A DNA stretch of 64,000 bases, taken from positions 2,556,803-2,620,802 of the forward strand of contig NZ_CP138858.1 of the NCBI RefSeq assembly GCF_033878955.1, in the 5' to 3' direction. This document shows, in pieces, positions 4,135 through 22,337 of this stretch. The notes beneath the pieces were generated by a model, which was not told where the DNA came from, ran no database searches, and worked only from the letters and a program-made list of their open reading frames with translations. The stretch's first letter is position 1. Each line of letters begins with the position of its first letter. The DNA is from Coraliomargarita algicola. GTDB taxonomy: Bacteria > Verrucomicrobiota > Verrucomicrobiia > Opitutales > Coraliomargaritaceae. Position numbers and translations under genes: made by a program.

Positions 4135-4310
4135 CCGCCGGCGAAGCATTGTTTTCAATATAATCTAATTTCATAACCATCTGAGACCGGACAACCTCAC
4201 AACCGGCAAGAACAATCAGGAAACTTCACGATCCAAACAATGAGGTTCCGCTAACGAAAGAAAAGCAGGAAGTATGGACTTTTTGGATCTGCCGCGAGAG
4301 AGCGCCCAGA

Positions 4311-4870
4311 TTCCCGGGATCGCCAATCTCCGCATTGGCTGCGGTGGCACGGGCCGCGACGACGCTCCCCGATCCAGAGGATCGAGGCTACGAAAGAGTG
4401 CAGGAGCTTTCCCCGGGATCGCCAATCTCCGCATTGGCTGCGGTGGCATGGGCCGCGACGACGCTCCCCGATCCAGAGGATCGAGGCTACGAAAGAGTGC
4501 GGGGGCTTTCCCCGGGATCGCCAATCTCCGCATTGGCTGCGGTGGCACCGGCCGCGACGACGCTCCCCGATCCAGAGGATCGAGGCTACGATAAAAGTGC
4601 GGGGGCTTTCCCCGGGATCGCCAATCTCCGCATTGGCTGCGGTGGCACGGGCCGCGACGACGCTCCCCGATCCAGAGGATCGAGGCTACGAAAGAGTGCG
4701 CGGGCTTTCCCCGGGATCGCCAATCTCCGCATTGGCTGCGGTGGCACGGGCCGCGACGACACTCCCCGATCCAGAGGATCGAGGCTACGATAAAAGTGCG
4801 GGGGCTTTCCCCGGGATCGCCAATCTCCCATTCGATGTTCGATGTTGGGCGTTCGATGTTCGCCCCATGC
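4311..4870. repeat. tandem array (~5.5 copies, ~100-bp period) of a hairpin-containing repeat, followed by a gttcgatgtt microsatellite tract
   Basis: cccgggatcgccaatctccgcattggc recurs at 4312, 4412, 4512, 4612, 4710 and 4811. The unit contains the inverted repeats gccaat/attggc and gatccagaggatc. Confidence 0.85.
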
Positions 4871-5142
4871 CCATGCGTCGCTTCCAGCTATGCAGGCCGC
4901 AGCAAGTGACGCCCCAACAAAATGAACCCGCAATCTAATTCTTAAAAAATCCACCATTTTCCCGTTTAACTCTCGAAAAATCAACAAATTCAACGACTGG
5001 CCGGCTTTAATTCTCCTTTTTTCCGCGCGCACGATTCATACGCACAAAAATCTAATTCTTGAAAATTCAACAGAAAGAACGTTTAATTCTTAAAATACCT
5101 ACAGATCGCGTAGATTTTAAGGCTTAATACATCTTTTTTCTT

Positions 5143-6633
5143 ATGGCTCTCCTATTCGGCACCTCGAATCCACAACGCTCTGCCGAAATCTCGCGTGAGC
5201 TGAAAGCGGGTCATTTACGAAAACTCGCTTCAAAACTCTACACAGACGACTTAAAAAGTCCTGCAGAGACGATTGTTCAACGCAACCGACTGATGATCGC
5301 GGCTCACTTTTATCCCGATGCAGTGATCAGTCACCGCTCAGCATTGGAGGGTGGCAGCGTCTCGCCAGGCGGCAAATTACACTTGAGCGTTCCCCGAAAA
5401 GGCGTGCCGCCTCGCAAACTCCCGGGTTTGGAAATCCGCATTTGGAATGGTCCAGAGCCTCAAGCGAACGACATACGCACACCACTAGGCGATGGGCTGG
5501 TAGTATACAGTGCATGCGAGGAGCGAGCTGTGCTAGAGAATTTTCAAATTGCGCGAGCTCGGGCAAATGATGAGTCCAAGACATTCTCTGGTCAGGAGCT
5601 CGAAAACTGGTTTGATCGACAACAACGGCTCGTCGGCCCCGACTGGCTTCCACAGCTTGAAGCTAAAGTGCAACAACTCGCGAACGAACTGGGCTGGCAA
5701 CGAGAGCTCGACTGTTTCAAACAGTTTATTGCCGCATTACGTGGCAAACCATCCAGCCATCAATTGGTGAGCGAGTTAGCTAGTTCACGTGCCCGGGGGA
5801 AACCTTATGATCCGGATCGTATCGCCCTATTTGCTGAACTGCACACACGCTTGGCGAGCGAACCCTTCCCCGATCTGCCCGCGCCGCCGGTAGCGGAACA
5901 TCCGAATCGGGCATTCTGGGAGGCTTATTTCTCGAACTTCATTGAGGGCACCAAATTCTCAGTCGAAGAAGCGCAAGAGTTGGTTAAAGAAACCGCAAAT
6001 GCCATTCACCTGGAAAAGAAGCGTCCGGAAGATGCGCACGACGTGAAAGAAACCTATCGACTGATCGTGGATCCGAATATCAGTGGAAGCGTCGCGAACA
6101 ATCCAGACGACTATATGAACCTGATCATTCGAAGGCACGCCCGTATGATGGCGACTCGTCATGATGTAGAGCCAGGCGTCTTTAAGACGAAAAATAATGA
6201 AGTCGGCTCACGCACATTTGTGAAACCGGAACTGGTGCGCGAAACACTCGCACGCGGATGGTTGGCCAGTCGCGAGCTGAAGTCGGCAGCATCGAGAGCA
6301 TTCTACATACTTTTTGTCGTCGCAGAGGTGCACCCATTCAAAGACGGCAATGGACGTATCTCAAGACTAGGAATGAATGCCGTGCTAGAGAATGCGCAGC
6401 AGATGCGACTGATCATCCCCACCTCGCTACGCAATGATTATATAAGCGTGCTCGAAGCCCTTACGCTGAACGGCAATGCCAATCCCTACGTGGCGTTCGC
6501 ACATAAGTTGATGGATTTTAACAGCCGTATGCCGTTTCGCTCTTTTGAGGAGTCCTACGAACACTTCAAAAAAACGGGCGCGCTCGACGAACCAACGAAC
6601 TCGAATTTCAGTCTAGAAAACTTCATTTCATGA
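5143..6633 (+). CDS. Fic/DOC family protein, class II (inhibitory motif in cis)
   Basis: Canonical Fic motif HPFKDGNGRISR. An upstream SNFIEG matches the inhibitory-helix consensus (S/T)xxxE(G/N). Confidence 0.8.
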   Translation: MALLFGTSNPQRSAEISRELKAGHLRKLASKLYTDDLKSPAETIVQRNRLMIAAHFYPDAVISHRSALEGGSVSPGGKLHLSVPRKGVPPRKLPGLEIRIWNGPEPQANDIRTPLGDGLVVYSACEERAVLENFQIARARANDESKTFSGQELENWFDRQQRLVGPDWLPQLEAKVQQLANELGWQRELDCFKQFIAALRGKPSSHQLVSELASSRARGKPYDPDRIALFAELHTRLASEPFPDLPAPPVAEHPNRAFWEAYFSNFIEGTKFSVEEAQELVKETANAIHLEKKRPEDAHDVKETYRLIVDPNISGSVANNPDDYMNLIIRRHARMMATRHDVEPGVFKTKNNEVGSRTFVKPELVRETLARGWLASRELKSAASRAFYILFVVAEVHPFKDGNGRISRLGMNAVLENAQQMRLIIPTSLRNDYISVLEALTLNGNANPYVAFAHKLMDFNSRMPFRSFEESYEHFKKTGALDEPTNSNFSLENFIS

Positions 6634-6739
6634 ACCCCAACGTCCAACAAGCCCTCAGTCAGAATTGAGGTGAGCGACTATAACGAATTTCTCCATTTCT
6701 GGTATTGATACACCAGAACTCACTCACTTTGATTTTGTC

Positions 6740-7327
6740 ATGGATCTTTTAATTTACGCCATCATTGGCCTTTTCGCTGTTTTATTTTTTGGTTTGGGAC
6801 TGGCGCGCAGCTTAATGTCGAAACCAGGCACGAAGAACCAAGCTTCCTCCAAAGCAAAACTAGATACGAATCAAGAAACGAAGCTGCCCTACCAAGCGTG
6901 CAAAAGTCTGCTGACGCCGAACGAACACGCGTTCTTTAAAGTGCTGCAACCCTTGGTCGAACCACATTGGCATCTGTTCGCTAAAGTCCGTATGGAGGAT
7001 ATCATTGAAGTCCCCAAAGAGCTGGAGTATCGTGAAAAGCAAAGCTTGAGAGGACGTATCAAATCGCGCCATATAGACTTCGTCATTTGTGACCCAACTA
7101 CACTTAAAGTATTAACCTGCATCGAGCTCGACGACAAGAGCCACCAAAAAAAGAAAAGCAAAGAGGCCGACCAATACAATGACCGGGCAATGCGCGATGC
7201 CGGAGTCAGTCTACTACGTGTCCCGGCCCGAATGAGCTACAGCGAGGAATACCTGAAAAGTTATCTGTTCGAGGAAGAAGCCCCTAGCGAATCCGCGTAT
7301 GCGCCCATAGCGACCGCGATGCATTAA
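6740..7327 (+). CDS. DUF2726-family membrane-anchored nuclease-like protein (second paralog)
   Basis: TM helix at the N-terminus, then SRHIDFVICDPTTLKVLTCIELDDKSH...LLRVP. Colinear with the ORF at 1869..2561. Confidence 0.6.
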   Translation: MDLLIYAIIGLFAVLFFGLGLARSLMSKPGTKNQASSKAKLDTNQETKLPYQACKSLLTPNEHAFFKVLQPLVEPHWHLFAKVRMEDIIEVPKELEYREKQSLRGRIKSRHIDFVICDPTTLKVLTCIELDDKSHQKKKSKEADQYNDRAMRDAGVSLLRVPARMSYSEEYLKSYLFEEEAPSESAYAPIATAMH

Positions 7328-7716
7328 AGTCAGGCCGCCTCGCAGTGTATTTATGGATACAAACGAAAAATAAAAATCATCGCACGCCAAACTTCCGAGT
7401 GGATAGACCCCAGAGCCACTAAGAACAATTAGGTCGTCCTCGCGAAAGGTTTCCAAATACCCTGCGTATTTATTTAATATACTATCTCAAAGTTCCAGCA
7501 CCTACAGCCCATCGACCGAATAATCGCGAAACAAATCCTCTGAGCGCTCCTTGGTGATATCGGTGGCATCTGTACAAATCTGCGTCCATCTGCGTCCATC
7601 TGCGTCCATCTGCGGTTATAATGTAGCGCGGGGCTTCGGAAACTATGTCAGCCATTACGATTCATATAATTTTGGTTCACTGGTAGTAGATCCAAAGATT
7701 AAACAGAGCATGGCTA

Positions 7717-8391
7717 TCAAAGTGTTCGAGTAAAACGACATTTAGGATACTGACTACACCCAAGAAACTGATTGCCTGCATTCGCTCCTCTTCGAGCCGT
7801 GCGAGTCACCAAAGGAGCTCCGCAGTTAGGACAGGTCGTATTTGATTTATGACGAGCCTTCAGGGAATTCATGTGTGTGCTGCGTGTCAGAGTTGGTGTC
7901 GCCTTTAACTCTTGAAGACGTCGATACACTGAAGACACCTCATCAGAAGAAAGCATTAATTCTCGATAGCTGCCTATATGTCTCGCAAGCCGTTCATTAA
8001 CAACATTTGGCGGCATCGAAGTTTTAAATACAGCATCCCCTATAAAAAAGATAATCGAATGAAAATAATTCTCACTAAGCCCCAAACACTCCGATAGGCA
8101 TTTTATGTGTCGATAATTTTGCCTAAGAGGATTCTGAAAAGAATGCTTCTTACCATATAGCACTTGAGTCCAGCGAGCTTGCTTGGGATCACCAAAAATC
8201 CAGCCATTATAATTCTTGGTTTCCACCACAAATATACCATAGCAAGAAACCAATATGTGATCTATTTGAGTTGTACCGCTACGCGTTGGGACGATCAAAT
8301 CATGAATACGCAAATAAACCCTGCTATCCAAGAAAGCCCACATCCCAACTGAAGCCATTTTTTCACCAAACCAACCTTTAAGGACCCCCAT
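7717..8391 (-). CDS. NERD-domain protein with C-terminal topoisomerase-type C4 zinc ribbon
   Basis: NERD core QIDHILVSCYGIFVVETKNYNGWIFG. C-terminal CPNCGAPLV...CSQYPKC. The locus is AT-rich relative to its surroundings. Confidence 0.7.
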   Translation of the reverse strand: MGVLKGWFGEKMASVGMWAFLDSRVYLRIHDLIVPTRSGTTQIDHILVSCYGIFVVETKNYNGWIFGDPKQARWTQVLYGKKHSFQNPLRQNYRHIKCLSECLGLSENYFHSIIFFIGDAVFKTSMPPNVVNERLARHIGSYRELMLSSDEVSSVYRRLQELKATPTLTRSTHMNSLKARHKSNTTCPNCGAPLVTRTARRGANAGNQFLGCSQYPKCRFTRTL

Positions 8392-8728
8392 AACTAACCT
8401 CCATAAACAAATAATTCAGTATTATGATAATATGTGAGGAAAATAACAAAACCAATCAAGACAAACCAACCACAAACATAGTCACAAAAACGATAGAATC
8501 CCCTACGTGGCCGATCCAACGGCGGTCGTCACCCCTGCGTCGCTTTCAGCTATGCATTGAGCTGCCCCCGACAAAAAGAATCCGCGACTCAACTAGCAGT
8601 GCACTGGGCTTTCAGGTCTCAGCATAGCGGTGGCTTGGATTCACGTCCATTCACGTCCATTCACGGTTAAGTATTGTAGTTACCTGATGGATACCAGTTC
8701 CAGAAAAGGATCTGTGTTCCTCGCTGCT

Positions 8729-9598
8729 TCAATCCACCATGTTCACGCGGTATTCTGCGAGTGGATGCTTGCTTTGCCATTGTGGGAGGCGTGGGCTGGG
8801 ACCTTCGATGCGAACCAGGGGCGGTGTGCGCTCGGCGAGGCCGTTGATCTTTGCCCAGAGGGTGGTGTCGCCCCAGTATTGTGGGGGCGTGTCGGCCTGC
8901 GCGACGGCGATGAAAATTTCGGCTGGACTGTGATGGCCGGCGCGGAGGGCAGCGAGGGTGTGGTATTCGAGTCGTCCGAACTCGCTGTCGGCGTAGCTGT
9001 GTTCTTGCAGCCAGCGCGTGACTGCCGCGGGAATCCATTGGATGGGGGCCTGTGATTGAGCGGCTAGCGCTTGGAATGCGGCGAGGTCTTGCTCGGCGAA
9101 GGCGCGGTCGACTTGGCAGGCAAATTCAAATTGTTCGGGGCTGACGGGCTGTCGTGTGGGGTAGCTGGCGGCCAGCTCGCTGGGCTGTAGTTGGCCGAGG
9201 CCATTGTAGCGTTCGATTCGGGGATGGGCGTCGATGCAAATGAGCTCGACTTGCGAGCGCTTCAAATGTTGTAGGCAGGTGAGAATGTGGCACAGCATCG
9301 ATTGATCGAATAGGCAGGCATCGAACCACAGCACAATCTGTGTGTCGGCGAGCATTTCGCTCAGTTTGCGGTATTGGTCCTGGAGTGTTTCCAGCACGTA
9401 TGCCTGGTCCAGGCCGCCGCCCGTGCTTTGCTCGAGGAAAACGGCGCGTGCTCGTAAAGTCGCCTCACTCGGCCAGCCCGGATTGCGGGGGCCGTCGTAG
9501 AGAATGTCGTGCCAGACAAAAACCTCGCCCGGCAGTTGTGCTTGTGTGAGTAACTGACCGGCGCAGTCGCCGCTGGTGATGTGAAGGGTTGCTGCCAT
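8729..9598 (-). CDS. DUF1835/DUF3658 domain protein
   Basis: N-terminus LHITSGDCAGQLL is typical of DUF1835. The C-terminal half resembles DUF3658. Confidence 0.5.
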   Translation of the reverse strand: MAATLHITSGDCAGQLLTQAQLPGEVFVWHDILYDGPRNPGWPSEATLRARAVFLEQSTGGGLDQAYVLETLQDQYRKLSEMLADTQIVLWFDACLFDQSMLCHILTCLQHLKRSQVELICIDAHPRIERYNGLGQLQPSELAASYPTRQPVSPEQFEFACQVDRAFAEQDLAAFQALAAQSQAPIQWIPAAVTRWLQEHSYADSEFGRLEYHTLAALRAGHHSPAEIFIAVAQADTPPQYWGDTTLWAKINGLAERTPPLVRIEGPSPRLPQWQSKHPLAEYRVNMVD

Positions 9599-9617
9599 TG
9601 AAATACGTGTGAAAGAT

Positions 9618-10247
9618 CTACAACCCGAGTCGGGTGGCGTACCATGAGGCTTCGGCGCGGGTGGAGATGCCGAGCTTGCGGTAAATCGCTTTGATGTGGC
9701 TGGCTACGGTGGTGGGCGCGATCCCTAGCTGGCTGGCGACCTCGCTGTTGCGGTATCCGCGGGAAATGAGTACGAGGGTTTCTTTCTCGCGCTCGGTTAA
9801 GAGCTCGTGGTCGGCTTCGATGGGGCCGGTGCGCTGAAAGTGCTCCATGATGCGCTTGGCGATTGAGGGCGAGAGCGCGGGAACGCCTGTGCTGAGCTCG
9901 CGCAGCTGTCGACTCAGTTGCTCGGCGGGGTGCTCTTTGAGCAAATATCCCTGCGCGCCTGCGGAGAGGGCGGCGACGATGAGGGCGTCGTCGCCCATGA
10001 TGGTGATGATCACGCAAATGGTTTGTGGGCTGCTGCGTTGGATGGCTCGCAGGGCGTCCAGGCCGGAGCCATCGGGCAAGGACAGGTCGATCAGGGCGAG
10101 GTCGAACTCGGCTTTTGCGGTGGCTGCTCGGCTGCTTTTTAAATCGGGGGCTTCTGTGATCTGACAGTGGGGGAATGCTTGGCTCACGATCGCGTTGAGC
10201 CAACGGCGATTGTCGGCCTGGTCTTCGATGATGAGGCAGCTGTTCAT
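9618..10247 (-). CDS. two-component response regulator, NarL/FixJ (LuxR HTH) family
   Basis: REC domain (LIIEDQ...DLALIDLSLPDGSG) plus a LuxR-type HTH (LTEREKETLVLISRGYRNSEVASQLGIAPTTVASHIKAIYRKLG). Confidence 0.85.
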   Translation of the reverse strand: MNSCLIIEDQADNRRWLNAIVSQAFPHCQITEAPDLKSSRAATAKAEFDLALIDLSLPDGSGLDALRAIQRSSPQTICVIITIMGDDALIVAALSAGAQGYLLKEHPAEQLSRQLRELSTGVPALSPSIAKRIMEHFQRTGPIEADHELLTEREKETLVLISRGYRNSEVASQLGIAPTTVASHIKAIYRKLGISTRAEASWYATRLGL

Positions 10248-10249
10248 TT

Positions 10250-12130: not shown

Positions 12131-12615
12131 GGCCCCGTCCGGCTCGACCGTGAGGTCGAAGGCGCTGAGTTCCAGCTGATCTTCCTCGGTTTCGGCCCGG
12201 ACCAGAATGGTGCCGGGGGGATGTCGGCCGCGGGGCCCTTGCTGGCGCGCGCCTGCACGCCGCTGCCCGTGTCGCTCGGGGCCAGTTTTAATCCCAGCCA
12301 GGGCTGTTGATGAGCCAGTAGAGTGACGAGCAGCATCACCGCGATTCCCAGAGCCAGGGCTCCGGTCAATAGCGTCAGCGGTGGAACTTGTCGTCGTGGT
12401 AAGGTCTGGGAAGAAGCCATGCGCGGATAACTAGCTGAAAATCCTCTGTTCAGGGGATAGCCTGATTTCGAGAGAAAAGATATGATCAAGGCTTACGCTC
12501 ATTTCGTCCATAAGCGTCAAGGATTCTTTTCTTTCTGGCGAAATCACAGCGGCCACTAGCAACGGCTTAGCTGGGTCCGCATTGCGACACGACTACCACA
12601 CGACATTCTACTACC

Positions 12616-15600
12616 ATGCAACGAAACGCCCTCTTCACGGCCGTATCTCTATTCGCGACTGCGTCGCTCCCGACCACTGCGCTGCAAGCGGCACCGGACA
12701 CGGTCGATCCCATCTTCGCCGCATCAGCGGGGCATGTCTTTGATCCAGCTGAGACGGGGGGCGTGTCATCTGTGCTGGTGCAGCCGGACGGCAAGGTCCT
12801 TTTTGGCTCGAATGAAATGGTGGGGAATTTCGGCGGCACTACCCGCCGCACTGCCCTGACGCGCTTCAATCCTGACGGGACGGTCGACTCCTATTTCTTT
12901 GCCGACAACGAACCGACCGGCTCGGACTCCGGCATTTTCTATGATGACGCCGGCTGGTCCGAGACGCATGCGCTCGGGCTGCAGTCCGACGGCAAAATTA
13001 TCGCCGCTGGGGTGATGCAGGGCGTTCGCGACGGCACCAAGCTCGCGCCCACTGTAGAGTTTCGCTCAAAGAGCATTGTGCGCTTTAATGCGGACGGCAG
13101 CATTGACACCACTTTTCAAACCAATGGCACGGCTCCCAGCAGTGGCTTTAACTACATCGAGGACATCACCATCGGCCCTGATGACAGCATTTATGCAGTC
13201 GGTGGTTTCGGTGGCTTTCGTGATAGCGAGGGAGATCCTTACACCACTTGCTACGGCATCGCACGGCTCCACCCAAACGGCTCGCTCGACACCAGCTTCG
13301 GGCTGGATCCGGCCGAGTTTGGCGTCCCTGCCGGTGCTCCCAATCTTTCCGGTTTTTTCCGTGAAGCCACGATCGATCCTTCCGGCAAAATCTATGTCGC
13401 GGGCTCGTTTCAGTATGGATACAGTTACCCGCAGACCACCATCCCTGTGGTCGCCCGGCTCTTTCCAAACGGTCGCCTCGACACTACATTCAATGCCGCA
13501 GTGCCAGCGAATACGTTATCGATTACTGGGCTGGAACTAGAGCCCGACGGGCGCCTGGTGGTGCTCGGACACACAGACAACTATCAAACACAGAGCTTTG
13601 TCGTTCGCTTGCAGTCGGATGGCTCGCTGGATTCGTCCTTTAACCTCGATCCGTCGATCACCCGAACCACTGCTCGCCCCTTGCAACGCGACGCCGCCGG
13701 GCGCTACCTGCTAACCATTCCCGATGCTTCCGGCGAGGCGCCATTGGGGGTCCTGGTTCGTATCACCTCCACGGGAGCGATTGATTCCAACTTCCGAGCC
13801 GAGGGCACAGACTCGGGCACCAGTTTCTTCAATACCTTTACCACCGGCTTCAACGGGAAGATCTACGCCGGCAGTGGCGGCACGGAAGTCAACGGCGTGC
13901 CTACGATTAAACTGGTCGGCTTTGAGGGCGATGTCGTGCCCTCCAGCTTAGCTTGGACCTACACACAGATCGCTTCAGCAGAGTCCGCAGGTTCCGTCAT
14001 CCTCTCCGTCACCCGCAGCGGCGATTTGTCGGCGGCTGCATCCGTCAGTTATGCCACCGCAGCTGGTAGCGCCAATGCCGCTGACTTCACCGCAAGCTCC
14101 GGCACACTGAATTGGCCGGCTGGCGTCGGAGGCGTGCAATCTTTCACCGTCTCGCTGATCGATGATGTTAACGTGGAGTCGGATGAGACTTTTTCCGTCA
14201 ATCTATCCTCCGCCAGCGGCGCGACGCTGAGCGCCCCATCTTCGGTTACAGTCACCATCCGTGACGACGACTCTTTGCCCGTGATCGTCACCCCACCCGC
14301 AGCGCTGACAGTCAAAGAAGGCGAGCCCGCCCGTTTCTCAGTTGCCGTTTCCAGTGCTGTCGCCCCCAGTTTTCAATGGCAGAAAAGCGGCGTCGACATC
14401 CCGGGGGCGACTTCGGCGGTGTATACGATCGCAGCCACGAACTTGGGATCTGCAGCTGATTACAACGTCATCGTGACCACAGCAGCGGGCTCGACCCCGA
14501 GCGCCGCAGCGACCTTAACCGTCAACCCACCTGCCGCCGTGCCTGAATCTGGCGTTGCCCTAAGCGGTGTCACCACTCCGGGGCCATTCACTCTTCTCGC
14601 CGACGGCTCGATGTTGATGCTCGATGGAAGCTCCTTCGCTGGCTACACCTTGCGCAAACTCGACGGCACTTTTACGGTTGATCCCGGTTTTTCAGTGAGC
14701 ACGACGCCGGAGGGCAATATTTCTTCCAGTTCGGTTTATCCTTCGCCCATCGCCTTGCCGAACGGGCAGTTTATAGTGACTGGATTCTTCTCCGAGATCA
14801 ACGGCACCGTTCGACGCCGCTTGGCTAGGATGAATGCTGACGGCACACTCGATACCAGCTTTGTGCCCTTCTTCAACGACGGTAGTTTTCCGGTCAACGA
14901 ATACACCGGCTACTTCAACGGTCTCAGCGGCGTGCACGTCGGCGACAGCGGAACGGTGTATGCCCTCGTGAATAGTAGTAATCAGGGCAACCGCCTCTTC
15001 CGTCTACTCGCCGATGGCTCCGCCGATCCGAGTTTTAGCACGGCGTTTAATTATAGCACCTACAGTGATTTTTCCGCGCTGACTGAGTTGCCCGACGGTT
15101 CTATGCTGATTGGTTATGTCGCGGGTGGATACGGCGGCTTCGTGCGTGGCATCCGACGCGTGCTGCCCGATGGCAGCTTCGCTGCCGACTTCCCGCATTT
15201 CACGACCAGTCAAAACGTGACCGGCTTTGCCCTGATTGGAAACGACCGCTTTGCGGCGATTCATGGCAATTTGTTGACCATCCACAATCTGGAGGACGGT
15301 GCTCTCTTGGAAACGCACAGTTTCACTGGTACGCTCACTTCCATTCAGCCCTATCGCGGACGCTTGTTGCTGACCGGGCCGACCGTTTTCGATTCGATTG
15401 ATTTGCCCGGCCTCGCGCTCTTTTCGTTCGACGGCACAGTCGATGACAACTTCCCCGGTGGTGCCGGACCGAACGGCTATGTGACGAATGCCCAGGTCGA
15501 TGATCAGGGGCGTATCTTGGTGTCCGGCTCCTTCACCAGCTGGAATGGCGTGAGTGCGGCCGGATTTGCCCGCCTGCTGGTCGAGCGCCCGGAAATCGGT

Positions 15601-18600
15601 TTTGCGCTGAGCGGCGCGGCTCTCTTTGAAGACGAAGGCGCACTCAGCCTGGAGCTCGTTCGTTACGGCGATCACACGCAGGCCGCTTCCGTCCGTGTCC
15701 GTAGTGTGGATGGCACAGCCGTCTCGCCCGCCGATTTTGCCGCGATCGATCAAACTATTAGCTGGGCCGCGGGCGATGCCAGCTCGAAGACTGTGAGCAT
15801 TACGCTAGTCGATGATGCGGCGATTGAAGGCGATGAAAACTTTAGCCTGCAACTCTCCGAAGTTACCGGAGGCAGCCTCGTCTCTGACACGTTGACCGTG
15901 ACTCTCTACGACGATGATTCCCTCGCGCAGATCACTGAGCCGCCTGTCGATACATTTGCTGTGCTCGGTCAGTCCGCCACGCTCAGCGTCACGGCGACCA
16001 GCCCCAGCACCATGAGCTATCAATGGTATTTCAATGGACAACCGATTGCCTCCGCGACCGATGCCACTTATAGCATCCCCTCGGTTGCCGAGGCGAATGA
16101 AGGCAGCTACAGCGTGCGCATCAGCAACGACTACGGCAGCCTCGATTCCGATGAAGTGTCGCTCACCATCATCCCCGATCCGGCCGCGCTGGTGAGTGGA
16201 TACACCGGTATTACCCTTAACAGCGGCGTCGTTGCGCTCGATGTCGCGCCCGATGGCAGTGTGATCATCGTCGGCGGGTTCACCGATGTGGGCGGCCATA
16301 CGGCGATCGACTATGTGGCCAAAGTCGATGCCAGTGGCAATCTCGATACCAATTTCGTGCCAGCCGCGATCGCGAGCGGTTCCGTCCATGACGTCGCTTT
16401 GCAAGACGACGGAAAGGTCGTGATCGTCGGCTCTTTTTACACCGTCGGCGGCGAAAGCCTGCGCGGCATGGCCCGTCTCAATGCCGACGGCTCACTCGAC
16501 ACCGACTTTGCCAGCAACATTGCTGCCGGCACCACTGGCGCCGCCAATGCAGTCGATATTCTTAGCGACGGACGCATCGTATTCGGAGGCAGCTTTACCT
16601 CATGGAATAATCAATACATCGGTGCCTACAGCGCTGCGGTGGCCAACGCCGACGGCAGCTACGCGGGGGCTATGTCGAAAAACGACTCGCAAACGATCGG
16701 AGCAATCAAAGCACTCCCCGATGGGGGCGCTCTGGTCACGGCCAGCACCACATCATCCTCGCGGCAAAAGGTCTACAAGTATGATGCCAACCTGGTGGGC
16801 CAGAGCTTCACCTATTCATCCGGGCGCACCCGGGTGGATGCGATCGACCTCGCGCCCGACGGGGACTATCTCTTCGCCGGAAACGGTCAGGTGCTCAAAA
16901 TCAATCCCGATGGCAGCACCGATCAATCTGCTTCGCTCTACAATGCCACCGAGATAGCCGCTCAAATCAACGGAAAGTACATCGCCGCCGGTGGCTCTGG
17001 CAGCGGCCGGACCGTGCGCTATCTCTCGAACGGCACGGTCGATCCTTCCTTTGCTGACGGCACCGGTTTCAATAATTCCGTCAAAGATCTCGCGATTCGC
17101 CTGGATGGCAAAGTCTGGGTCGGCGGTAACTTTACCAGCTACAACGGCAGCGCCGTCAGCTATCTTGCGCTGCTCAATGGTGATCCCATCCCGCTGGCTC
17201 TGACTGTCCAGCCCGCCGCGCTCACGGTAGTTGATCCCGGCGAGGACGTTACCCTGACCGTTGCAGCGGTCGGCACCTCGGCCCTGAGCTACCAATGGTT
17301 CCACGATGGTGATCCGCTGGTCGATGGCGCAGGCATTGCCGGTAGTCAAAGCGCCAGCCTGGTGCTCAGCGCGGTCGATGATTTGGACAACGGCGACTAC
17401 ACGGTGGTCGTGAGTAACGAAGCCGGCACCCGCACCAGCGAGATCGCGCAAGTCATCGTCTTGGGCGCTCCGCAGATTTTGAGTCTCTCCGAGGATGTCA
17501 GCCTGCTGGAGGGCAGTTCGCTCACCTTGGAAGTCGAGGCCCTCGGCGCCGGCACGCTCAGCTATCAATGGTATCGCGACGGCACTCTGTTGCCGACGCA
17601 GACTGCGGCCACGCTGAGCATTGCCCCTCTCTCCGAAGCCGATGCAGGCAGCTATACCGTGGTGGTGAGCAACAGTATTGATGACACCCCCAGCGCCGGC
17701 ATCGAAGTTGAGGTGTTGGCCAACGCCGCGGCGATTGCACCGGGCTTTACGCCGCCCACAGTCACCGGTGGTCCAGTCAACCAAGTGCTGCCCCTGCCGA
17801 ACGGACGCGTGCTGGTCGGTGGTAATTTCGCATCGATCAGCGATGGTGTGAATACCTCCGGTGCCCGCCTCGCCGTGGTCGACGAGACCGGAGCCGTCAT
17901 TCCCGTGACAGGACTCTCCGCCGATGGCTCAATCGAATCGTTGCGCCTACAGGCAGACGGCAAAATTCTGCTCGCGGGCGGGTTTAACAATATCGGCAAC
18001 AGTGCCCGCGGGAAGCTCGCCCGTCTCAATGCCGACCTCAGCCTCGACACGGTGTTCAACCCGACTGGTCTGGTCGGCTCGTATTTCGGAGCTTTCGATA
18101 TTGCAGAGGAAGTCGGCGGCACGATCATCGCCGTGGGCTCCTTTACTGACTTCGGTGGTGAGCCCACTGCCGACTACGCCGTCCGTCTCAACGATGATGG
18201 CTCCTATAACAGCAGCTTCACCTCCGGCGCGAGTAATTGGATCTATCGCGTCTTTCCACAGGCTGATGGCAAGCTGATCTTCAGCGGGTGGTTCGGTGCT
18301 TGGGGCGGCACTGGAGATGAATACATTACCCGCACCGATGCGTCCGGAGCGCAGGATACCACGATCGATTACAACACCGGTTTCTTCTACACCAGCGATG
18401 CCTTTCAGCTCGCCAACGGCGATCTGCTCGCCGCCAGCTCCTATGGCGGCGGCGCGATTCGTCTGGCCGCCGACACAGGTGCCACCATCAGTCCCTTCCC
18501 GGTCGGTGGTAATATTGTGGGTGCTGTTCGTGCTTTTGCCGAAAGCCCCGCAGGCGATATTTATATCGGGGGCTATGTGAGCAGCGCCGCCGGGCAAACC

Positions 18601-19230
18601 GCGGGCCGTCTCATCCGCCTGGACGCGGCGGGCAATCGTGACTTCAACTTCGATACCGGGACCGGCTTTGACAACTACGTCAATGATCTCGCGTTGACCG
18701 ACAGCGGTCGCATCTGGGCGGGCGGAGAGTTTACCACTTATAACGGAATCACTGCGTCCAAACTCGTGCTGCTCAAAGGTAGCGCCGTGAGCGCGCCCAG
18801 TGATCCATTCGAGACCTTCGTCGCCTCGCTCCCCGCCAATCAACAAGGCGAAGACGACGATGCCGATGGCGACGGCTGGGCCAACCTGGTCGAGTTCCTG
18901 TTTGGCACTGCGCCCGACGATGCCTCTGCCGCGCCCGCGCCATTGCCCACCGGTTCGGTGCAAAGTGGCAGCAGTTTGAACAGCAGCTACGGCTTGTCCC
19001 TCGACGCGGCCAAGAGCTACCGCGTGGTTGAAGTCGAAATTCCCGTGGATCTGCAAGGCTTGAGCGTGACCCTCGAAGCCAGCCAGGATCTCAGCTTCAG
19101 CGGCGACGCCAGCGCAACCGAAATCGGCACGCCGATCAATAACGGAAGCACCGAAATCCGCCGCTACGTGATCACCCCCGCAATCGACGATGCCGCCAAG
19201 ATGTTCTGGCGACTCAAGGTCAGCCGTTGA
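12616..19230 (+). CDS. giant (2204 aa) secreted cell-surface repeat protein
   Basis: Signal peptide. Many delta-60-type repeats (LNADGSLDTSF). Calx-beta-like modules (DDxxxEGDExFS.LS). Ig-like modules ending in ...YQW. Asp-rich Ca-binding segment DDDADGDGW. Confidence 0.8.
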   Translation: MQRNALFTAVSLFATASLPTTALQAAPDTVDPIFAASAGHVFDPAETGGVSSVLVQPDGKVLFGSNEMVGNFGGTTRRTALTRFNPDGTVDSYFFADNEPTGSDSGIFYDDAGWSETHALGLQSDGKIIAAGVMQGVRDGTKLAPTVEFRSKSIVRFNADGSIDTTFQTNGTAPSSGFNYIEDITIGPDDSIYAVGGFGGFRDSEGDPYTTCYGIARLHPNGSLDTSFGLDPAEFGVPAGAPNLSGFFREATIDPSGKIYVAGSFQYGYSYPQTTIPVVARLFPNGRLDTTFNAAVPANTLSITGLELEPDGRLVVLGHTDNYQTQSFVVRLQSDGSLDSSFNLDPSITRTTARPLQRDAAGRYLLTIPDASGEAPLGVLVRITSTGAIDSNFRAEGTDSGTSFFNTFTTGFNGKIYAGSGGTEVNGVPTIKLVGFEGDVVPSSLAWTYTQIASAESAGSVILSVTRSGDLSAAASVSYATAAGSANAADFTASSGTLNWPAGVGGVQSFTVSLIDDVNVESDETFSVNLSSASGATLSAPSSVTVTIRDDDSLPVIVTPPAALTVKEGEPARFSVAVSSAVAPSFQWQKSGVDIPGATSAVYTIAATNLGSAADYNVIVTTAAGSTPSAAATLTVNPPAAVPESGVALSGVTTPGPFTLLADGSMLMLDGSSFAGYTLRKLDGTFTVDPGFSVSTTPEGNISSSSVYPSPIALPNGQFIVTGFFSEINGTVRRRLARMNADGTLDTSFVPFFNDGSFPVNEYTGYFNGLSGVHVGDSGTVYALVNSSNQGNRLFRLLADGSADPSFSTAFNYSTYSDFSALTELPDGSMLIGYVAGGYGGFVRGIRRVLPDGSFAADFPHFTTSQNVTGFALIGNDRFAAIHGNLLTIHNLEDGALLETHSFTGTLTSIQPYRGRLLLTGPTVFDSIDLPGLALFSFDGTVDDNFPGGAGPNGYVTNAQVDDQGRILVSGSFTSWNGVSAAGFARLLVERPEIGFALSGAALFEDEGALSLELVRYGDHTQAASVRVRSVDGTAVSPADFAAIDQTISWAAGDASSKTVSITLVDDAAIEGDENFSLQLSEVTGGSLVSDTLTVTLYDDDSLAQITEPPVDTFAVLGQSATLSVTATSPSTMSYQWYFNGQPIASATDATYSIPSVAEANEGSYSVRISNDYGSLDSDEVSLTIIPDPAALVSGYTGITLNSGVVALDVAPDGSVIIVGGFTDVGGHTAIDYVAKVDASGNLDTNFVPAAIASGSVHDVALQDDGKVVIVGSFYTVGGESLRGMARLNADGSLDTDFASNIAAGTTGAANAVDILSDGRIVFGGSFTSWNNQYIGAYSAAVANADGSYAGAMSKNDSQTIGAIKALPDGGALVTASTTSSSRQKVYKYDANLVGQSFTYSSGRTRVDAIDLAPDGDYLFAGNGQVLKINPDGSTDQSASLYNATEIAAQINGKYIAAGGSGSGRTVRYLSNGTVDPSFADGTGFNNSVKDLAIRLDGKVWVGGNFTSYNGSAVSYLALLNGDPIPLALTVQPAALTVVDPGEDVTLTVAAVGTSALSYQWFHDGDPLVDGAGIAGSQSASLVLSAVDDLDNGDYTVVVSNEAGTRTSEIAQVIVLGAPQILSLSEDVSLLEGSSLTLEVEALGAGTLSYQWYRDGTLLPTQTAATLSIAPLSEADAGSYTVVVSNSIDDTPSAGIEVEVLANAAAIAPGFTPPTVTGGPVNQVLPLPNGRVLVGGNFASISDGVNTSGARLAVVDETGAVIPVTGLSADGSIESLRLQADGKILLAGGFNNIGNSARGKLARLNADLSLDTVFNPTGLVGSYFGAFDIAEEVGGTIIAVGSFTDFGGEPTADYAVRLNDDGSYNSSFTSGASNWIYRVFPQADGKLIFSGWFGAWGGTGDEYITRTDASGAQDTTIDYNTGFFYTSDAFQLANGDLLAASSYGGGAIRLAADTGATISPFPVGGNIVGAVRAFAESPAGDIYIGGYVSSAAGQTAGRLIRLDAAGNRDFNFDTGTGFDNYVNDLALTDSGRIWAGGEFTTYNGITASKLVLLKGSAVSAPSDPFETFVASLPANQQGEDDDADGDGWANLVEFLFGTAPDDASAAPAPLPTGSVQSGSSLNSSYGLSLDAAKSYRVVEVEIPVDLQGLSVTLEASQDLSFSGDASATEIGTPINNGSTEIRRYVITPAIDDAAKMFWRLKVSR

Positions 19231-19249
19231 AGCGCCCATTTGATTCCGT

Positions 19250-20600
19250 AGTCCTACATTGGATGTTCGACGTTCCCTCCTTTTGCGTGGCCTCGGTTCT
19301 CAGAACCGGGGAGCGCGGGGAATGGGGAACGTCCAACGTCCAACATCGAACGTCCAATGTTGAATAATTTTTAATTCAATGGCGTGTGCAGTCAGTATTC
19401 CGTAGCGCTACATTCGACGTTCCCAATTCCGTAGCCTCGATCCTGCGGATCGGGGAGCGTCGTTTCGGCCTCGGTTACCGCAGCCAGTGCCACCGCTGCC
19501 AATGCGGAGATTGGCGATCCCGGGAGAAAGCCGTGCAGTCACCATTCCGTAGCCCTACATTCGATGTTCGATGTTGAGCGTTCGATGTTCGACGTTCAGT
19601 ATTCCGTAGCCTCGATCCTGCGGATCGGGGAGCGTCGTTCGGCCTCGGCTACCGCAGCCAATGCGGAGATTGGCGATCCCGGGTAAGCCGTGCAGCACCA
19701 TTCCGTGGCCCTACATTCGATGTTCGACGTTGAGCGTTGGATGTTCGATGTTCGACGTTGAGCGTTGGATGTTCGATGTTCCCAATTCCGTAGCCTCGAT
19801 CCTGCGGATCGGGGAGCGTCGTTTCGGCCTCGGTTACTGCAGCCAGTGCCACCGCTGCCAATGCGGAGATTGGCGATCCCGGGGGAAGCCGTGCAGTCAG
19901 TATTCCGTAGCCTCGATCCTTCGGATCGGGGAGCGTCGTTTCGGCCTCGGCTACCGCAGCCAGTGCCACCGCTGCCAATGCGGAGATTGGCGATCCCGGG
20001 GAAAGCCGTGCAATCAGTATTCCGTAGTCCTATATTCGATGTTCGACGTTGGGCGTTGGACGTTCGACGTTCAGTATTCCGTAGCCTCGATCCTTCGGAT
20101 CGGGGAGCGTCGTTTCGGCCTCGGCTACCGCAGCCAGTGCCACCGCGGCCAATGCGGAGATTGGCGATCCCGGGGAAAGCCGTGCAGTCAGTATTCCGTG
20201 GCCCTACATTCGATGTTCGACGTTGGGCGTTGGATGTTCGATGTTCCCAATTCCGTAGCCTCGATCCTGCGGATCGGGGAGCGTTGTTTCCGCCTCGGTT
20301 ACCGCAGCCCATGCCACCGCAGCCAATGCGGAGATTGGCGATCCCGGGGAAAGCCGTGCAGTCAGTATTCCGTGGCCCTACATTCGATGTTCGACGTTCC
20401 CTCCCTTTGTGTAGCCTCGATCCTTCGGATCGGGGAGCGTCGTCTCGGCCTCGGCTACCGCAACCAGTGCCACCGCTGCCAATGCGGAGATTGGCGATCC
20501 CGGGGGAAGCCGTGCAGTCAGTATTCCGCAGTCCTACATTCGATATTCGACGTTGAGCGTTGGATGTTCGACGTTCCCTCCCTCCTCTTTCCTTCCTTTC
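19250..20600. repeat. second array (~8 copies, variable 110-185-bp period) of the same repeat family in opposite orientation, interleaved with gttcga(c/t)gtt microsatellite spacers
   Basis: The unit ...ccgtagcctcgatcctgcggatcggggagcgtcg...gccaatgcggagattggcgatcccggg is the reverse complement of the 4311..4870 unit with a ~20-bp insertion. Long ORFs in the array, on either strand, are repeat artefacts. Confidence 0.85.
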
Positions 20601-21542
20601 CTAAGGACGAATGCAGCGACCTTCCACGGGGGCTTCTTTGACTTGGGAAATGATGATGAGTGAGGTGACGACGATCAGGGCTCCGATGATGAGGCCGGGG
20701 CGTAGGTTTTCGCCGGGGATGAAGAGGGTGGATTCGATCACGCCCATCAGAGGAATCAGGAAGCGAAAGGTGGAGAGCACATTGACACTGTAGAGCTCAA
20801 TTAGACGATTCCAGAGCGTGAATGCGGTGGCGGACAGGGCCGCGAGATAGAGCGTGACCAAGAGGGTGGTGAGATTGAAGTGGGCGATGTAGCTGGACCA
20901 GGCGCTGGCAGAAATGAGCAAGAGCATGAGTCCGCCCAGACTGAGTGAAAATGCGGTGGTGCAACGACTGCCGGCGACGGGGGCGACTTTTTTCAGGAAG
21001 GTTGCGGCCACGGCGCCGGAACCGGATGCGGCGAGAAAGGCGAGCGTGCCGAGACCGGCGTTTTTTAAGTCGGCGCCGGGCTGGTAAATCGCACAGGCGA
21101 TACCGATCGAACACACGCCCAGCAGTATCCAGTGAATGCGCTGAGGCGGAGCGGTCTTGAGTATCATCGGCGCGAGCAACATCCACCAGAAACTGCCCGA
21201 GCCCAGCAGGGCCCCGAGGGTGCCGGTTGAAATGCTGAGCCCGTAGTAAAAGAAGATGTATTGAAAGAATGTCTGCCCGAGCACCACCGCCATCAGTGGT
21301 CCACGTGGGGCTTGCTTGAGTTTTTCTATGATGGGGCCACGACAGAAGGGGAGCACCATCAGTCCTGCCAGTACGAAGCGACTGCCCGCGAAGACCAGTT
21401 GTTCGCCGTAGCCGGTGATTTGTAAGGCGGCATAGCTGTTCTTGATGACGGGGAATGCGCTGCCCCATAGGGTGGCACAAATCAAAACCTGTAGGTAGAA
21501 ACTGACTGGCAATTGAGTCAGTGGTGGCGCTTTAGCTGGCAT
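20601..21542 (-). CDS. EamA/DMT-superfamily transporter
   Basis: About 10 TM helices and a duplicated EamA-like architecture. Confidence 0.6.
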   Translation of the reverse strand: MPAKAPPLTQLPVSFYLQVLICATLWGSAFPVIKNSYAALQITGYGEQLVFAGSRFVLAGLMVLPFCRGPIIEKLKQAPRGPLMAVVLGQTFFQYIFFYYGLSISTGTLGALLGSGSFWWMLLAPMILKTAPPQRIHWILLGVCSIGIACAIYQPGADLKNAGLGTLAFLAASGSGAVAATFLKKVAPVAGSRCTTAFSLSLGGLMLLLISASAWSSYIAHFNLTTLLVTLYLAALSATAFTLWNRLIELYSVNVLSTFRFLIPLMGVIESTLFIPGENLRPGLIIGALIVVTSLIIISQVKEAPVEGRCIRP

Positions 21543-21563
21543 ATGCGATGGATTCGACGCGGT

Positions 21564-22235: not shown

Positions 22236-22337
22236 GGGTCTCTATATGCTGCTTTCAGTCGATGTTCAAGCTTGTGAGTGTTTCTCTGAATAGTCTTTCG
22301 CGGGGTGAAACTGCGGATGGAGGCAGCGAAAAAAAGC

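Follow-up and report, generated by a model that had tools for sequence, protein, structure and literature searches.

Two arrays of a composite two-hairpin intergenic repeat, probably of the REP/BIME kind, in Coraliomargarita algicola

Two intergenic regions of the Coraliomargarita algicola window (the entire 64-kb stretch of DNA analysed here), and no others within it, contain arrays of a composite repeat, which we refer to as arrays A and B. Each unit consists of two different hairpins, H1 and H2, joined by a short linker. We interpret the arrays, with a probability of roughly 0.6, as clusters in which a composite palindromic intergenic repeat has been amplified in tandem, of the REP, BIME or 'tandem REP array' kind. 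The chromosome that carries them resembles that of the marine genus Thalassobacterium (Puniceicoccaceae, Verrucomicrobiota). The anatomy of the modules, the GTAG tag of H2, a compensatory stem variant and the extragenic position are established by the observations below. The parts of the arrays and their edges are as follows.

4175–4312: leader 'Y', conserved and non-coding, before the first array A unit
4313–4828, + strand: array A overall, five full 99/100-nt H1-H2 units and then a truncated sixth
4313–4809, + strand: the five full units of array A, starting at 4313, 4412, 4511, 4611 and 4710
4367–4387, 4466–4486, 4565–4585, 4665–4685 and 4764–4784, GTAG tag on the − strand: H2 stem-loops of array A
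4810–4828, + strand: truncated sixth H1 (CCCGGGATCGCCAATCTCC), fused to the heptamer module at a common ATCTCC
4830–4864, + strand: heptamer tract (ATTCGATGTTCGATGTTGGGCGTTCGATGTTCGCC) closing array A
4897–5100: stretch 'X', conserved, A+T-rich and non-coding, upstream of fic
19243–20576: array B overall, seven full units on the − strand and one partial
19243–19426, + strand: start of array B, directly past the adhesin stop codon (19230)
19427–20504, − strand (that of H1): the seven full H1-H2 units of array B, with heptamer tracts interleaved on the + strand
19498–19524, 19657–19683, 19857–19883, 19974–20000, 20148–20174, 20322–20348 and 20478–20504, − strand: H1 copies of array B
19435–19455, 19610–19630, 19794–19814, 19911–19931, 20085–20105, 20259–20279 and 20415–20435, + strand: GTAG-H2 stem-loops of array B
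20519–20576, + strand: end of array B, the last linker and a heptamer tract

Array A is regular, with unit-to-unit spacings of 99, 99, 100 and 99, and Tandem Repeats Finder reports 4313–4832 as 5.2 copies of period 99 with 96% matches. The strict ~100-bp period given in the initial annotation describes A, where its ~5.5 units resolve into five full units and the truncated sixth, and does not extend to B, where its ~8 units are seven full and one partial. H1 copies in array B are irregularly spaced (159, 200, 117, 174, 174 and 156) because a third module, the heptamer tracts, is interleaved with them. The start of array B contains a short heptamer stub, a variant REP, an inverted heptamer tract (19331–19365) and a degenerate linker; its partial unit (19243–19365) carries H2 in the variant form, the variant REP at 19287–19311 reading GTGG-CCTCGGTTC-TCA-GAACCGGGG. 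Relative to array A units, six of the seven array B units have a 15-nt linker insertion, the exception being the unit at 19603–19683. Twenty-five nucleotides separate the end of array B from the EamA stop codon (20601, − strand), and the array occupies the gap between the convergent adhesin and EamA genes (stop codons 19230 and 20601).

All 12 window copies of H1 (CCCGGGATCGCCAATCTCCGCATTGGC, with the palindrome GCCAAT-N6-ATTGGC) are identical over the 27 nt of the element. The stem of H2 is 9 bp long, including one T-G position, and its loop is 3 nt, as seen in 33 copies from the window and related loci; 26 of these 33 have a GTAG tag outside the stem, and the remaining ones have GTAT (3), TTTG (2), GTGG (1) or GCAG (1). 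There are two types of H2 stem, CCTCGATCC/GGATCGGGG (n = 27) and CCTCGGTTC/GAACCGGGG (n = 6), differing by compensatory changes, and this is the sole variation in the stems of H1 and H2 among 23 aligned full units from four sources, in which loops and linker are variable. By its stem, loop, tag and sub-families we classify H2 as a predicted GTAG-tagged REP; H1 has neither a GTAG nor a CGTC tag, which is atypical for a REP. The conserved cores that had been described as common to both arrays do match in 12 of 12 units, against 0.00 expected in 100 shuffles, and neither is found elsewhere in the window; likewise, a profile HMM made from the 12 units and run on the 64 kb recovers exactly those 12, with E-values of 1e-25 to 1e-26 in array A and 1e-22 to 1e-24 in array B.

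The orientation of H1 and H2 is constant in all 12 units. Heptamer tracts of the GTTCGAYG type, correctly noted in both arrays by the initial annotation and mapped here as a separate module, are on the + strand in both arrays with the sole exception of 19331–19365. Since they are oriented alike in A and B, the module is independent of H1-H2, and for the same reason the arrays are not the simple reverse complements they were taken to be. What remains of that description is a set of inverted A-B matches of 52–69 nt with 83–98% identity, the longest exact match being 48 nt; the strand of the heptamers and the 15-nt linker insertion depart from it.

At the edges of the arrays the modules are joined mosaic-fashion at microhomology. 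The fusion of truncated H1 and heptamers that ends array A is present identically in T. maritimum (L010, ~88–115), and the junction of ...ATCTCC with CATTCGATG is seen again at the end of another module (T. maritimum L010 1436–1450 and 3696–3712). At its left end, leader 'Y' coincides with the start of a small, truncated ORF (ATG 4174, − strand). Window positions 4159–4447, which include the leader, are 93% identical to T. sedimentorum (L001), positions 4227–4522 are 95% identical to T. maritimum (L016), and the last ~55 nt of the leader have a copy before another unit in T. maritimum (L010 1123–1178). Stretch 'X' includes a sigma-70-like match (5067–5096); its region 4899–5074 is 75.6% identical to T. 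sedimentorum L001 5839–5695, where the counterpart is upstream of a different gene (Mrr).

Comparison with relatives, beginning with Thalassobacterium maritimum (87–98% identical to the window), shows that array copy number varies. The array A site has five units in the window, three in T. maritimum and one or two in T. sedimentorum, and the adhesin/EamA junction has seven in the window versus one in a metagenome contig (L037), where a single B-type unit adjoins the adhesin stop and is 91–95% identical to the window units. Because a relative has a single unit at this junction, we conclude that array B grew in place; growth in place is observed at both sites. T. maritimum contigs terminate inside arrays. 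In T. maritimum and T. sedimentorum the composite unit was seen in an exact-22-mer scan only in the neighbourhoods corresponding to the two in the window, so that the unit is not ubiquitous. The collection scans required the exact H1 22-mer and did not cover H2 alone; for this reason, and because draft assemblies collapse repeats, the unit counts are lower bounds.

The two arrays lie in very different surroundings, in which the following genes were recognised.

1–3439, + strand: defence-type genes left of array A (DUF3427 helicase, DUF2726 protein and HNH endonuclease, by Pfam)
5143–9598: variable part of the bracketed segment (Fic, DUF2726, NERD and DUF1835, by Pfam)
5143–6633: Fic, SoFic-like in PADLOC
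6740–7327: DUF2726
7717–8391, − strand: NERD with Zn-ribbon
8729–9598, − strand: DUF1835, in other contexts in relatives
9618–19230: conserved part of the segment (response regulator, kinase and surface protein, by Pfam)
9618–10247, − strand: LuxR response regulator
10250–12130, − strand: histidine kinase
12616–19230, + strand: 2204-aa adhesin/surface protein, DUF5122/Ig/Calx-beta
20601–23928, − strand: conserved genes right of array B (EamA transporter, HAD hydrolase, EF-hand protein and RuvB, by Pfam)

Pfam agrees with the gene content first listed for the segment (Fic, DUF2726, NERD, DUF1835, the LuxR regulator and kinase, and the 2204-aa protein), but the proposal that the arrays bracket a discrete accessory segment does not survive. 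Array A is inside a variable anti-phage defence island and array B is at a conserved junction, so that the two do not bound a mobile 14.5-kb segment. The segment itself is heterogeneous, variable from 4.9 to 9.6 kb and conserved from 9.6 kb through to 24 kb. G+C content rises from ~48% to ~60% near 8.5 kb, within the segment, and low-G+C defence genes extend left of array A (1–3439), where PADLOC reports mREase_IV (3.4e-115) and HNH (9.4e-41), the DUF3427 helicase matching a type IV methyl-directed restriction enzyme. Of this left region only 1–1837 is common to T. maritimum, and within 5143–9598 only 6688–7279 aligns. Homology resumes exactly at 9619 and takes in the response regulator, kinase, adhesin, array B, EamA, HAD and RuvB; 9618–19230 is 90–92% identical to T. 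maritimum scaffold_78, with the same gene order in metagenome contigs L023 and L037–L039, and 20601–23928 is 90–96% identical to T. maritimum L006 and 72–93% to L019/L037. For the histidine kinase, T. maritimum has an ortholog at 99%, and homologs at 50–74% occur across Verrucomicrobia.

The association of the repeat with a variable region is upheld, as genes differ on both sides of array A between the window and T. maritimum. Left of the array the window carries DUF2726, HNH and remnants of genes, and right of it Fic; in T. maritimum the left side is occupied by two Mrr-type nucleases, an HNH in inverted orientation and three further genes, and Fic is absent. Array A in T. maritimum has a divergent, promoter-side position, and several of the variable T. 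maritimum genes are flanked by repeat-bearing intergenic regions. Pfam gave no recombinase gene in 1–24 kb, and no integrase was found in 1–34 kb.

H1 is found more widely than the composite unit. Exact copies (22–27 nt) are present at 33 loci in genomes or metagenomes, which belong to several lineages of Puniceicoccaceae and to a few other bins; the sequence that follows H1 is unrelated among them, and no copy was found in viral contigs. Eight of the 33 loci have a second, inverted copy that pairs with H1 over 21 bp, and the interior enclosed by the two is not conserved. These elements of other Puniceicoccaceae, 112–156 nt long with H1 as inverted, co-varying ends and with variable interiors, appear from their sequences to be REPIN/MITE-like; no target-site duplication is visible at the eight complete ones. 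Neither a RAYT nor another transposase is among the families listed for 99 H1-neighbouring ORFs and 21 window ORFs, and the 99 neighbours include no candidate protein encoded consistently.

Several known systems resemble these arrays in part. E. coli BIMEs are tandem, intergenic mosaics of palindromic units and conserved linker motifs, and tandem intergenic palindromes with conserved linkers are present here also; however, same-family REPs alternate in orientation in BIMEs, whereas the window has two unrelated palindromes in constant orientation, and we rejected an E. coli-type BIME because H1 and H2 differ and have the same orientation in 12/12 units. The array units are not REPINs or MITEs either, as each has a single H1 without an inverted partner. 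Other candidates rejected are an integron cassette array, the units being head-to-tail with no genes between them and no integrase having been found in 1–34 kb, and a CRISPR array, as the initial annotation had rightly excluded: the sequences between H1 copies are themselves repeated at 86–96%, and no Cas family is among the window proteins scanned. STRR of cyanobacteria are short tandem heptamers and BOX elements of Streptococcus pneumoniae are modular; the GTTCGAYG-type tracts resemble the former, and the modular build with one variable-number module the latter, but without sequence relationship and in unrelated hosts, so that both are analogies only. A classical REP family is dispersed in tens to thousands of copies. 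Counting against the REP/BIME-like reading are the few sites of the composite unit, the lack of a transposase among the families listed, the atypical H1 and the location of array A in T. maritimum away from the usual 3' position of REPs.

The closest parallels are in Pseudomonas fluorescens SBW25 and in the GTAG REPs. SBW25 has ordered tandem arrays in which two REP types (GI and GIII) alternate with fixed spacing, head-to-tail, in up to 12 copies and in both orientations in the genome, and related single elements form inverted doublets (REPINs) elsewhere (Bertels & Rainey 2011, PMC3116915, which also names BIMEs). The present arrays likewise alternate H1 with H2, in five copies in one orientation and seven in the other, and inverted doublets of H1 occur in other Puniceicoccaceae. 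However, this is a different phylum with different sequences, the arrays here are 14.4 kb apart and not on opposite replichores, array B is irregular with its heptamer module, and no RAYT is among the families listed for the ORFs scanned. GTAG REPs, including those of Opitutus terrae, have GTAG outside a 5–13-bp stem with a short (2–20-nt) loop, sub-families with complementary stem changes and occasional GTGG tags; they are extragenic, often between convergent genes, and form tandem-reiterated clusters with flanking DNA (Di Nocera et al. 2013, PMC3733652). H2 shares all of these traits (tag, stem, loop, sub-families, GTGG, location and tandem clusters), but copy number here appears low and local, and H2 in full units is always coupled to H1. 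The H2 sequence is not in the text of the supplementary files of PMC3733652. In the literature we found no description of a REP-like repeat for Puniceicoccaceae, and Opitutus terrae alone for Verrucomicrobia.

An alternative explanation is that the arrays act in cis as RNA: their stacked hairpins would end transcription, or shield the adhesin and EamA mRNAs at the 3' end, and the arrays would be selected rather than selfish. Array B fills the convergent gap, stems are invariant and loops variable, and the junction has retained a unit in a relative with only 76% adhesin identity. H2 also folds strongly as RNA on its GTAG strand (−15.2 kcal/mol, against −10.1 on the complement), which in array B is sense for the adhesin, and the conserved T/G position is a G-U pair there but a C-A mismatch on the opposite strand. 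Whole-unit folding is no more stable than shuffled sequence (|z| ≤ 1.4). There are no T runs after the hairpins, and the one terminator-like match in array B is not above shuffles; a single hairpin would suffice, and seven copies of varying number suggest amplification; in T. maritimum, array A is situated elsewhere than at a 3' end; and the 91–95% unit identity equals that of the EamA flank (92.7%) and is therefore not clearly above background. We consider this explanation unlikely. It is hardly credible that the arrays represent a new small structured RNA gene in tandem, or code for a repetitive protein, even though the period of 99 nt is divisible by three and both arrays are traversed by long ORFs on either strand. 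Several frames are open on both strands, as expected for a stop-free repeat. Any frame is broken by the steps of 100 nt in A and 200 nt in B, and no array ORF matches Pfam above the curated threshold (the sole match is DUF5073, 18.1 bits against a cut-off of 27), so that these ORFs are not coding; an Rfam search of the arrays matched no family. Together with the folding energy, these results largely refute such genes.

The initial annotation had suggested the inverted arrays as possible recombination substrates, either inverting the 14.5-kb segment or serving as entry and exit points for accessory genes. An exact identity of 48 nt is long enough for RecA-dependent recombination, the 52–69-nt matches are many, and both the differing gene content beside array A in close relatives and the repeat-bearing regions flanking variable T. 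maritimum genes would fit. Nevertheless, all five readable junctions in relatives have the un-inverted configuration of the window (A-right in T. maritimum; adhesin-B and B-EamA in T. maritimum and metagenome contigs), so that no inversion is seen among them; in T. maritimum the A-type and B-type variants of the unit remain confined to their respective loci, which argues against frequent A-B exchange; the variable region passes left of A and ends at 9619, which is 9.6 kb short of B; conserved, core-like sequence makes up the right two-thirds of the segment; and no recombinase gene was found in 1–24 kb. This proposal is quite improbable. We give slightly less credence to the arrays being clustered sites for a putative H1-recognising protein, such as a nucleoid-associated, gyrase-type or partition-like factor or the transposase of H1-ended elements. 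The 26–27 nt H1 identity across several families could reflect a constrained binding site rather than selfish DNA, and the identity of all 12 window copies, the exact 22–27 nt at 33 loci with unrelated sequence following and the confinement of variation in related H1 copies to the loop would agree with this; but identity across loci is partly forced by the exact-match search, no such protein is encoded consistently beside H1, and a pure H1-site model leaves the retention of H2 and linker unexplained. It is equally doubtful that H1 is a strictly conserved site for a putative protein and that H1-H2 arrays and leader form junctions driving cassette-like replacement of anti-phage genes (Mrr, HNH, DUF2726, Fic and NERD) in the defence island of Thalassobacterium, a system that might also, on occasion, flip the adhesin/two-component block.

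Under the REP/BIME-like reading, the repeat may have been seeded by a transposase, either a single-strand hairpin-recognising (RAYT/IS200-like) one or another, and multiplied locally by replication slippage or unequal recombination, and the present-day arrays would be mostly selfish or neutral DNA. As likely by-products, the convergent adhesin and EamA transcripts would have strong RNA hairpins in their 3' regions, and patches of homology could favour insertions, deletions and gene replacement in the island around array A. REP/BIME-like tandem clusters are a known kind, and what is new is a family with an unusual two-hairpin composite unit, which illustrates how a single copy can expand into a tandem array without leaving its site. 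Such arrays disrupt short-read assemblies and could act as variable-number markers for strain typing, and they flag a defence island that differs in gene content between relatives at 87–98% identity. A new biological question would arise only if H1 has a dedicated binding protein.

The invariant 22-mer GATCGCCAATCTCCGCATTGGC is present five times on the + strand in array A, with starts at 4318, 4417, 4516, 4616 and 4715, and seven times on the – strand in array B, between 19498 and 20499; it occurs nowhere else in the 64 kb, and shuffles expect 0.00 copies. A second core, CTCCCCGATCCNNAGGATCGAGGCTACG, is likewise found in five and seven copies, and a profile HMM trained on the 12 units recovers those 12 alone when searched against the window. 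The two hairpin-repeat arrays of the initial annotation are therefore borne out as strongly non-random features, with the corrected layout shown here.

4313–4828, + strand: array A, a tandem cluster of H1–H2 units
4810–4828: sixth H1 of array A, cut after CCAATCTCC and then fused to a heptamer tract
19243–20576: array B, a second tandem cluster of H1–H2 units
19243–19365: partial unit that opens array B

Array A is regular (TRF: 4313–4832, period 99, 5.2 copies, 96% matches), and the spacing in array B is uneven (159, 200, 117, 174, 174 and 156). The arrays had also been described as reverse complements of each other, which is correct for the H1–H2 part, where the longest exact inverted match is 48 nt, but not for the heptamer tracts; these GTTCGAYG-like runs are on the + strand in array A and array B alike, except at 19331–19365. 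The tracts therefore constitute an independent module, and the inversion of array A relative to array B is limited to H1–H2. The joint between the modules, at which ATCTCC is followed directly by CATTCGATG, recurs.

Each unit is composed of H1, a linker and H2, in that order. The 27-nt H1, CCCGGGATCGCCAATCTCCGCATTGGC, has a 6 bp stem and a 6 nt loop (–6.9 to –8.3 kcal/mol, RNA fold), and H2, which reads GTAG-CCTCGATCC-NNN-GGATCGGGG-AGCGTCGT on the + strand of array B, has a 9 bp stem and a 3 nt loop. As RNA, H2 folds at –15.2 kcal/mol on the GTAG strand (+ in array B) compared with –10.1 on the opposite strand, because a conserved T-G position forms a G-U pair on just one of them. GTAG is the tag of 26 of the 33 H2 copies in the window and related loci, and the stems are of two types, CCTCGATCC/GGATCGGGG and CCTCGGTTC/GAACCGGGG, with compensatory changes between them. 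When 23 full units are aligned, the H1 and H2 stems are invariant save for the H2 stem variant, and it is the linker and loops that vary; six of the seven array B units have a 15-nt linker insertion relative to the array A units.

Folding of the unit, which had been proposed as a check, gave a negative result at the level of the whole unit: MFE z-scores of –0.6 to +1.4 on both strands are no better than shuffles, and rule out a globally folded unit. Rfam searches of the window, array A and 20 related loci, at gathering and permissive thresholds, found nothing relevant, only an unrelated tmRNA and group II intron and a chance snoRNA (E = 0.9), and we dropped a known RNA family as an explanation. 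Similarly, no ORF running through the arrays has an above-threshold Pfam match, and together with the frame shifts arising from 100-nt and 200-nt spacings this rules out a coding repeat. We conclude that the unit is two local hairpins, and neither a larger folded RNA nor coding. A sigma-54 promoter in the TGGCAC linker was also rejected on inspection of the sequence, as the distance to the nearest GC does not fit.

A single scan of 185,579 species genomes identified the 22-mer at 17 loci, mainly in Puniceicoccaceae; metagenomes contributed a further 16 loci, and a viral scan found none in viral contigs. The window shares 87–98% identity across alignable stretches with Thalassobacterium maritimum SDUM461003 (species description in PMC11980603), in which exact H1 matches are of three kinds only: on scaffold_61, the array A neighbourhood; at the ends of scaffolds 78 and 69, which lie on either side of array B; and in a 412-nt collapsed repeat contig. 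T. sedimentorum has a sole H1 match, on a 5.9-kb scaffold that corresponds by homology to the neighbourhood of array A. Among these loci the complete H1–H2 composite is confined to Thalassobacterium-like sequences, and other loci carry H1 alone; in answer to the count suggested in the initial annotation, the unit is by this exact 22-mer scan restricted rather than ubiquitous. A transposase adjoining H1 was rejected, since none is among the Pfam families listed for 99 neighbouring ORFs and the scan gave housekeeping genes and Mrr nucleases instead. Exact H1 copies are also seen in contigs binned outside Puniceicoccaceae, L008 (Chitinispirillaceae), L011 (Victivallales) and L017 (Chthoniobacteraceae). 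The first is likely mis-binned, because the same sample has a Puniceicoccaceae bin with four H1 elements; the copies in L011 and L017 could reflect transfer of the element. In a Verrucomicrobia bin, one lone H1 (L003, 423–444) precedes a tmRNA gene (588–941) by about 150 nt, on the opposite strand.

Array B fills the gap between two convergent genes, those for the 2204-aa surface protein, or adhesin (stop at 19230), and for EamA (stop at 20601). T. maritimum and metagenome contigs share the arrangement response regulator–kinase–adhesin–repeat–EamA–HAD–RuvB. On the 45-kb contig L037, which spans the adhesin/EamA junction, the gap is 508 nt and contains one B-type unit with 91–95% identity to those of the window, abutting the adhesin stop at the identical point. 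With one unit there and seven in the window, array B has expanded in place. Identities of the flanks to this contig are mosaic (kinase and regulator 72%, HAD 72%, RuvB 88%), so that unit conservation has no clear excess over background; we discounted greater conservation of the unit than of its neighbours as evidence of selection, because it holds against the adhesin side (76%) but not the EamA side (92.7%). Neither the EamA nor the Fic protein of the window has an identical protein on record.

Array A varies in copy number: the window has five full units, T. maritimum has three and T. sedimentorum has one or two. In all three it is preceded by a leader of identical kind, a conserved non-coding stretch. 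To its left are DUF2726, HNH and gene remnants in the window, and two Mrr-type nucleases, three more genes and an oppositely oriented HNH gene in T. maritimum. On the right, Fic is present in the window and absent from T. maritimum; past a shared DUF2726 gene, T. maritimum has repeat units, cyclophilin and PNPOx-like genes and the window has NERD and DUF1835. These differences on both sides sustain the proposed tie between the repeat and a variable region. The variable genes are mostly of defence type, and PADLOC reports a type IV methyl-directed restriction enzyme (3.4e-115), HNH (9.4e-41) and a SoFic-like Fic. Within the remnants (3443–4174), short ORFs at 3443–3631 and 3913–4134 resemble fragments of one gene, and a small ORF (MKLDY...) retains its first ~17 codons; it is intact in T. 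maritimum (L016 5497–5700, –) and T. sedimentorum (L001 4243–4350).

The arrays had further been thought to bracket an accessory segment of about 14.5 kb. Homology to T. maritimum scaffold_78 starts precisely where the response regulator has its stop codon, at 9619; past this point T. maritimum has DUF2492 and cupin genes and the window has DUF1835. For the kinase there is a 99% ortholog in T. maritimum, with 50–74% homologs across Verrucomicrobia, and the G+C content is ~48% over 1–8.5 kb and ~60% over 9–22 kb. Taken together, these divide the segment into a variable part (4.9–9.6 kb) and a conserved part (9.6–19.2 kb). The variable part runs on, past array A, into variable sequence on its left; the arrays are not segment boundaries, and the bracket does not hold. 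The G+C step itself, at ~8400–8800, is near 9619 but not coincident with it.

Inversion mediated by the arrays, also suggested initially, can be assessed at five junctions that are readable in relatives.

Array A, right side: T. maritimum, window orientation
Adhesin–array B: T. maritimum and metagenome contigs, window orientation
Array B–EamA: T. maritimum and metagenome contigs, window orientation

All five are un-inverted, and the A-type and B-type unit variants each stay at their own locus across species; among these relatives neither gives any sign of inversion or of exchange between A and B. A homolog of the PNPOx-like gene (24315–24698) is oppositely oriented near array A in T. maritimum and T. 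sedimentorum, but we rejected this as evidence of inversion because identity is only 85% and the next gene is different, making a paralog possible. The DUF1835 (8729–9598) and AstE/AspA-like (24718–25620) genes are 15 kb apart on opposite strands in the window, and within ~1.3 kb of each other on the same strand in two relatives (L034 and L035). An old inversion of ~8.7–24.7 kb, with array B inside, would restore this adjacency, although the lead is a weak one since gene order differs between the two relatives. Further along, 25605–33716 encodes a 1754-aa DUF3686/DUF7902/AAA ATPase protein followed by 692-aa and 223-aa proteins, the latter two with no match in Pfam, NCBIfam or PADLOC; the three adjoin a phage CII-like regulator (33829–34311) and may be an uncharacterised system.

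Eight of the H1-only loci contain a 112–156-nt element with H1 at its start and, at the other end, a co-varying copy in inverted orientation (GCCAGAC-AGGA-GTCTGGCGNTCCCGG). Pairing between the two ends extends over 21 bp, and the interior is variable and non-conserved; no target duplication is visible at the eight elements, and they have no Rfam match. They share the build of a REPIN or MITE, and look like an undescribed family of this type in other Puniceicoccaceae. Several other repeat modules are seen in the window or its relatives. In T. maritimum, T. sedimentorum and metagenome contigs, H1 is followed by a conserved ~150-nt module (...GGGCGGGACGCCCACTCTCCATATTCACACTCCCG...GCCGCTTGAAAGCGGGACTTGTAGCCCGGCAC) that is absent from the window. 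Heptamer tracts lie right after the stop codons of EamA, cyclophilin and PNPOx-like genes, and their sense strand is always C-rich and G-poor (GGGAACGTCGAACATCCAACG...), which in this small sample would suit a Rho-loading site. Repeated GGACG-containing decamers (ATCTGCGTCC and ATTCACGTCC, + strand) are intergenic, at the bounds of variable genes, and are plentiful upstream of genes in related scaffolds. Directly upstream of ruvB are about six copies of a GTGTGAA heptamer (23929–23971); at the matching site a metagenome relative carries H1 (L019 5057–5078). In a metagenome relative, another mosaic repeat occurs in direct copies on both sides of the regulator–kinase–adhesin block and carries a different GTAG hairpin, GTAGCGGGGCTCTTTAGACCCCG. 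Several contigs stop shortly past the regulator gene.

L002 519–650, L005 524–655, L013 1086–1220: 112–156-nt element
L012 ~7550–7685, L030 ~1420–1551, – strand: 112–156-nt element
L008, L014, L029: 112–156-nt element
L010 1262–1440 and 3556–3700; L001 3329–3510, 3788–3960 and 1505–1690; L025/L031: ~150-nt module after H1
Window 20538–20572; L001 1170–1215 and 3310–3360; L010 1440–1490; L037 2600–2650: heptamer tracts directly after stop codons
Window 7567–7614 and 8639–8665; L001 430–640; L010 2990–3180 and 4440–4790: GGACG decamers
L023 76–183 and 10057–10164; L037 2650–2990 and 12800–12950: mosaic repeat with GTAGCGGGGCTCTTTAGACCCCG

GTAG REPs have been reported from the PVC superphylum, Opitutus terrae being rich in them, with GTGG variants and with clusters of units reiterated in tandem together with flanking DNA (PMC3733652); H2 has the structure that defines them. 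The closest precedent for the whole H1–H2 arrangement is in Pseudomonas fluorescens SBW25, which has ordered tandem arrays of two alternating REP types in both orientations (PMC3116915). In view of both, the arrays are most likely REP/BIME-like clusters, even though three things point against this: the low and local copy number so far, the failure to find a RAYT among the families listed for H1-neighbouring and window ORFs, and the fact that H1 is strictly identical. Hairpin elements of transposon origin would have been joined into the composite unit, which may then have been amplified locally via slippage or unequal recombination, and the units might act as RNA hairpins or as recombination patches. 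The first reading finds no support in relatives where it has the arrays bracket a mobile or invertible segment, and stands in its association with a variable region: the structure is real and highly non-random, probably belongs to a known kind of element, and accompanies variable DNA.
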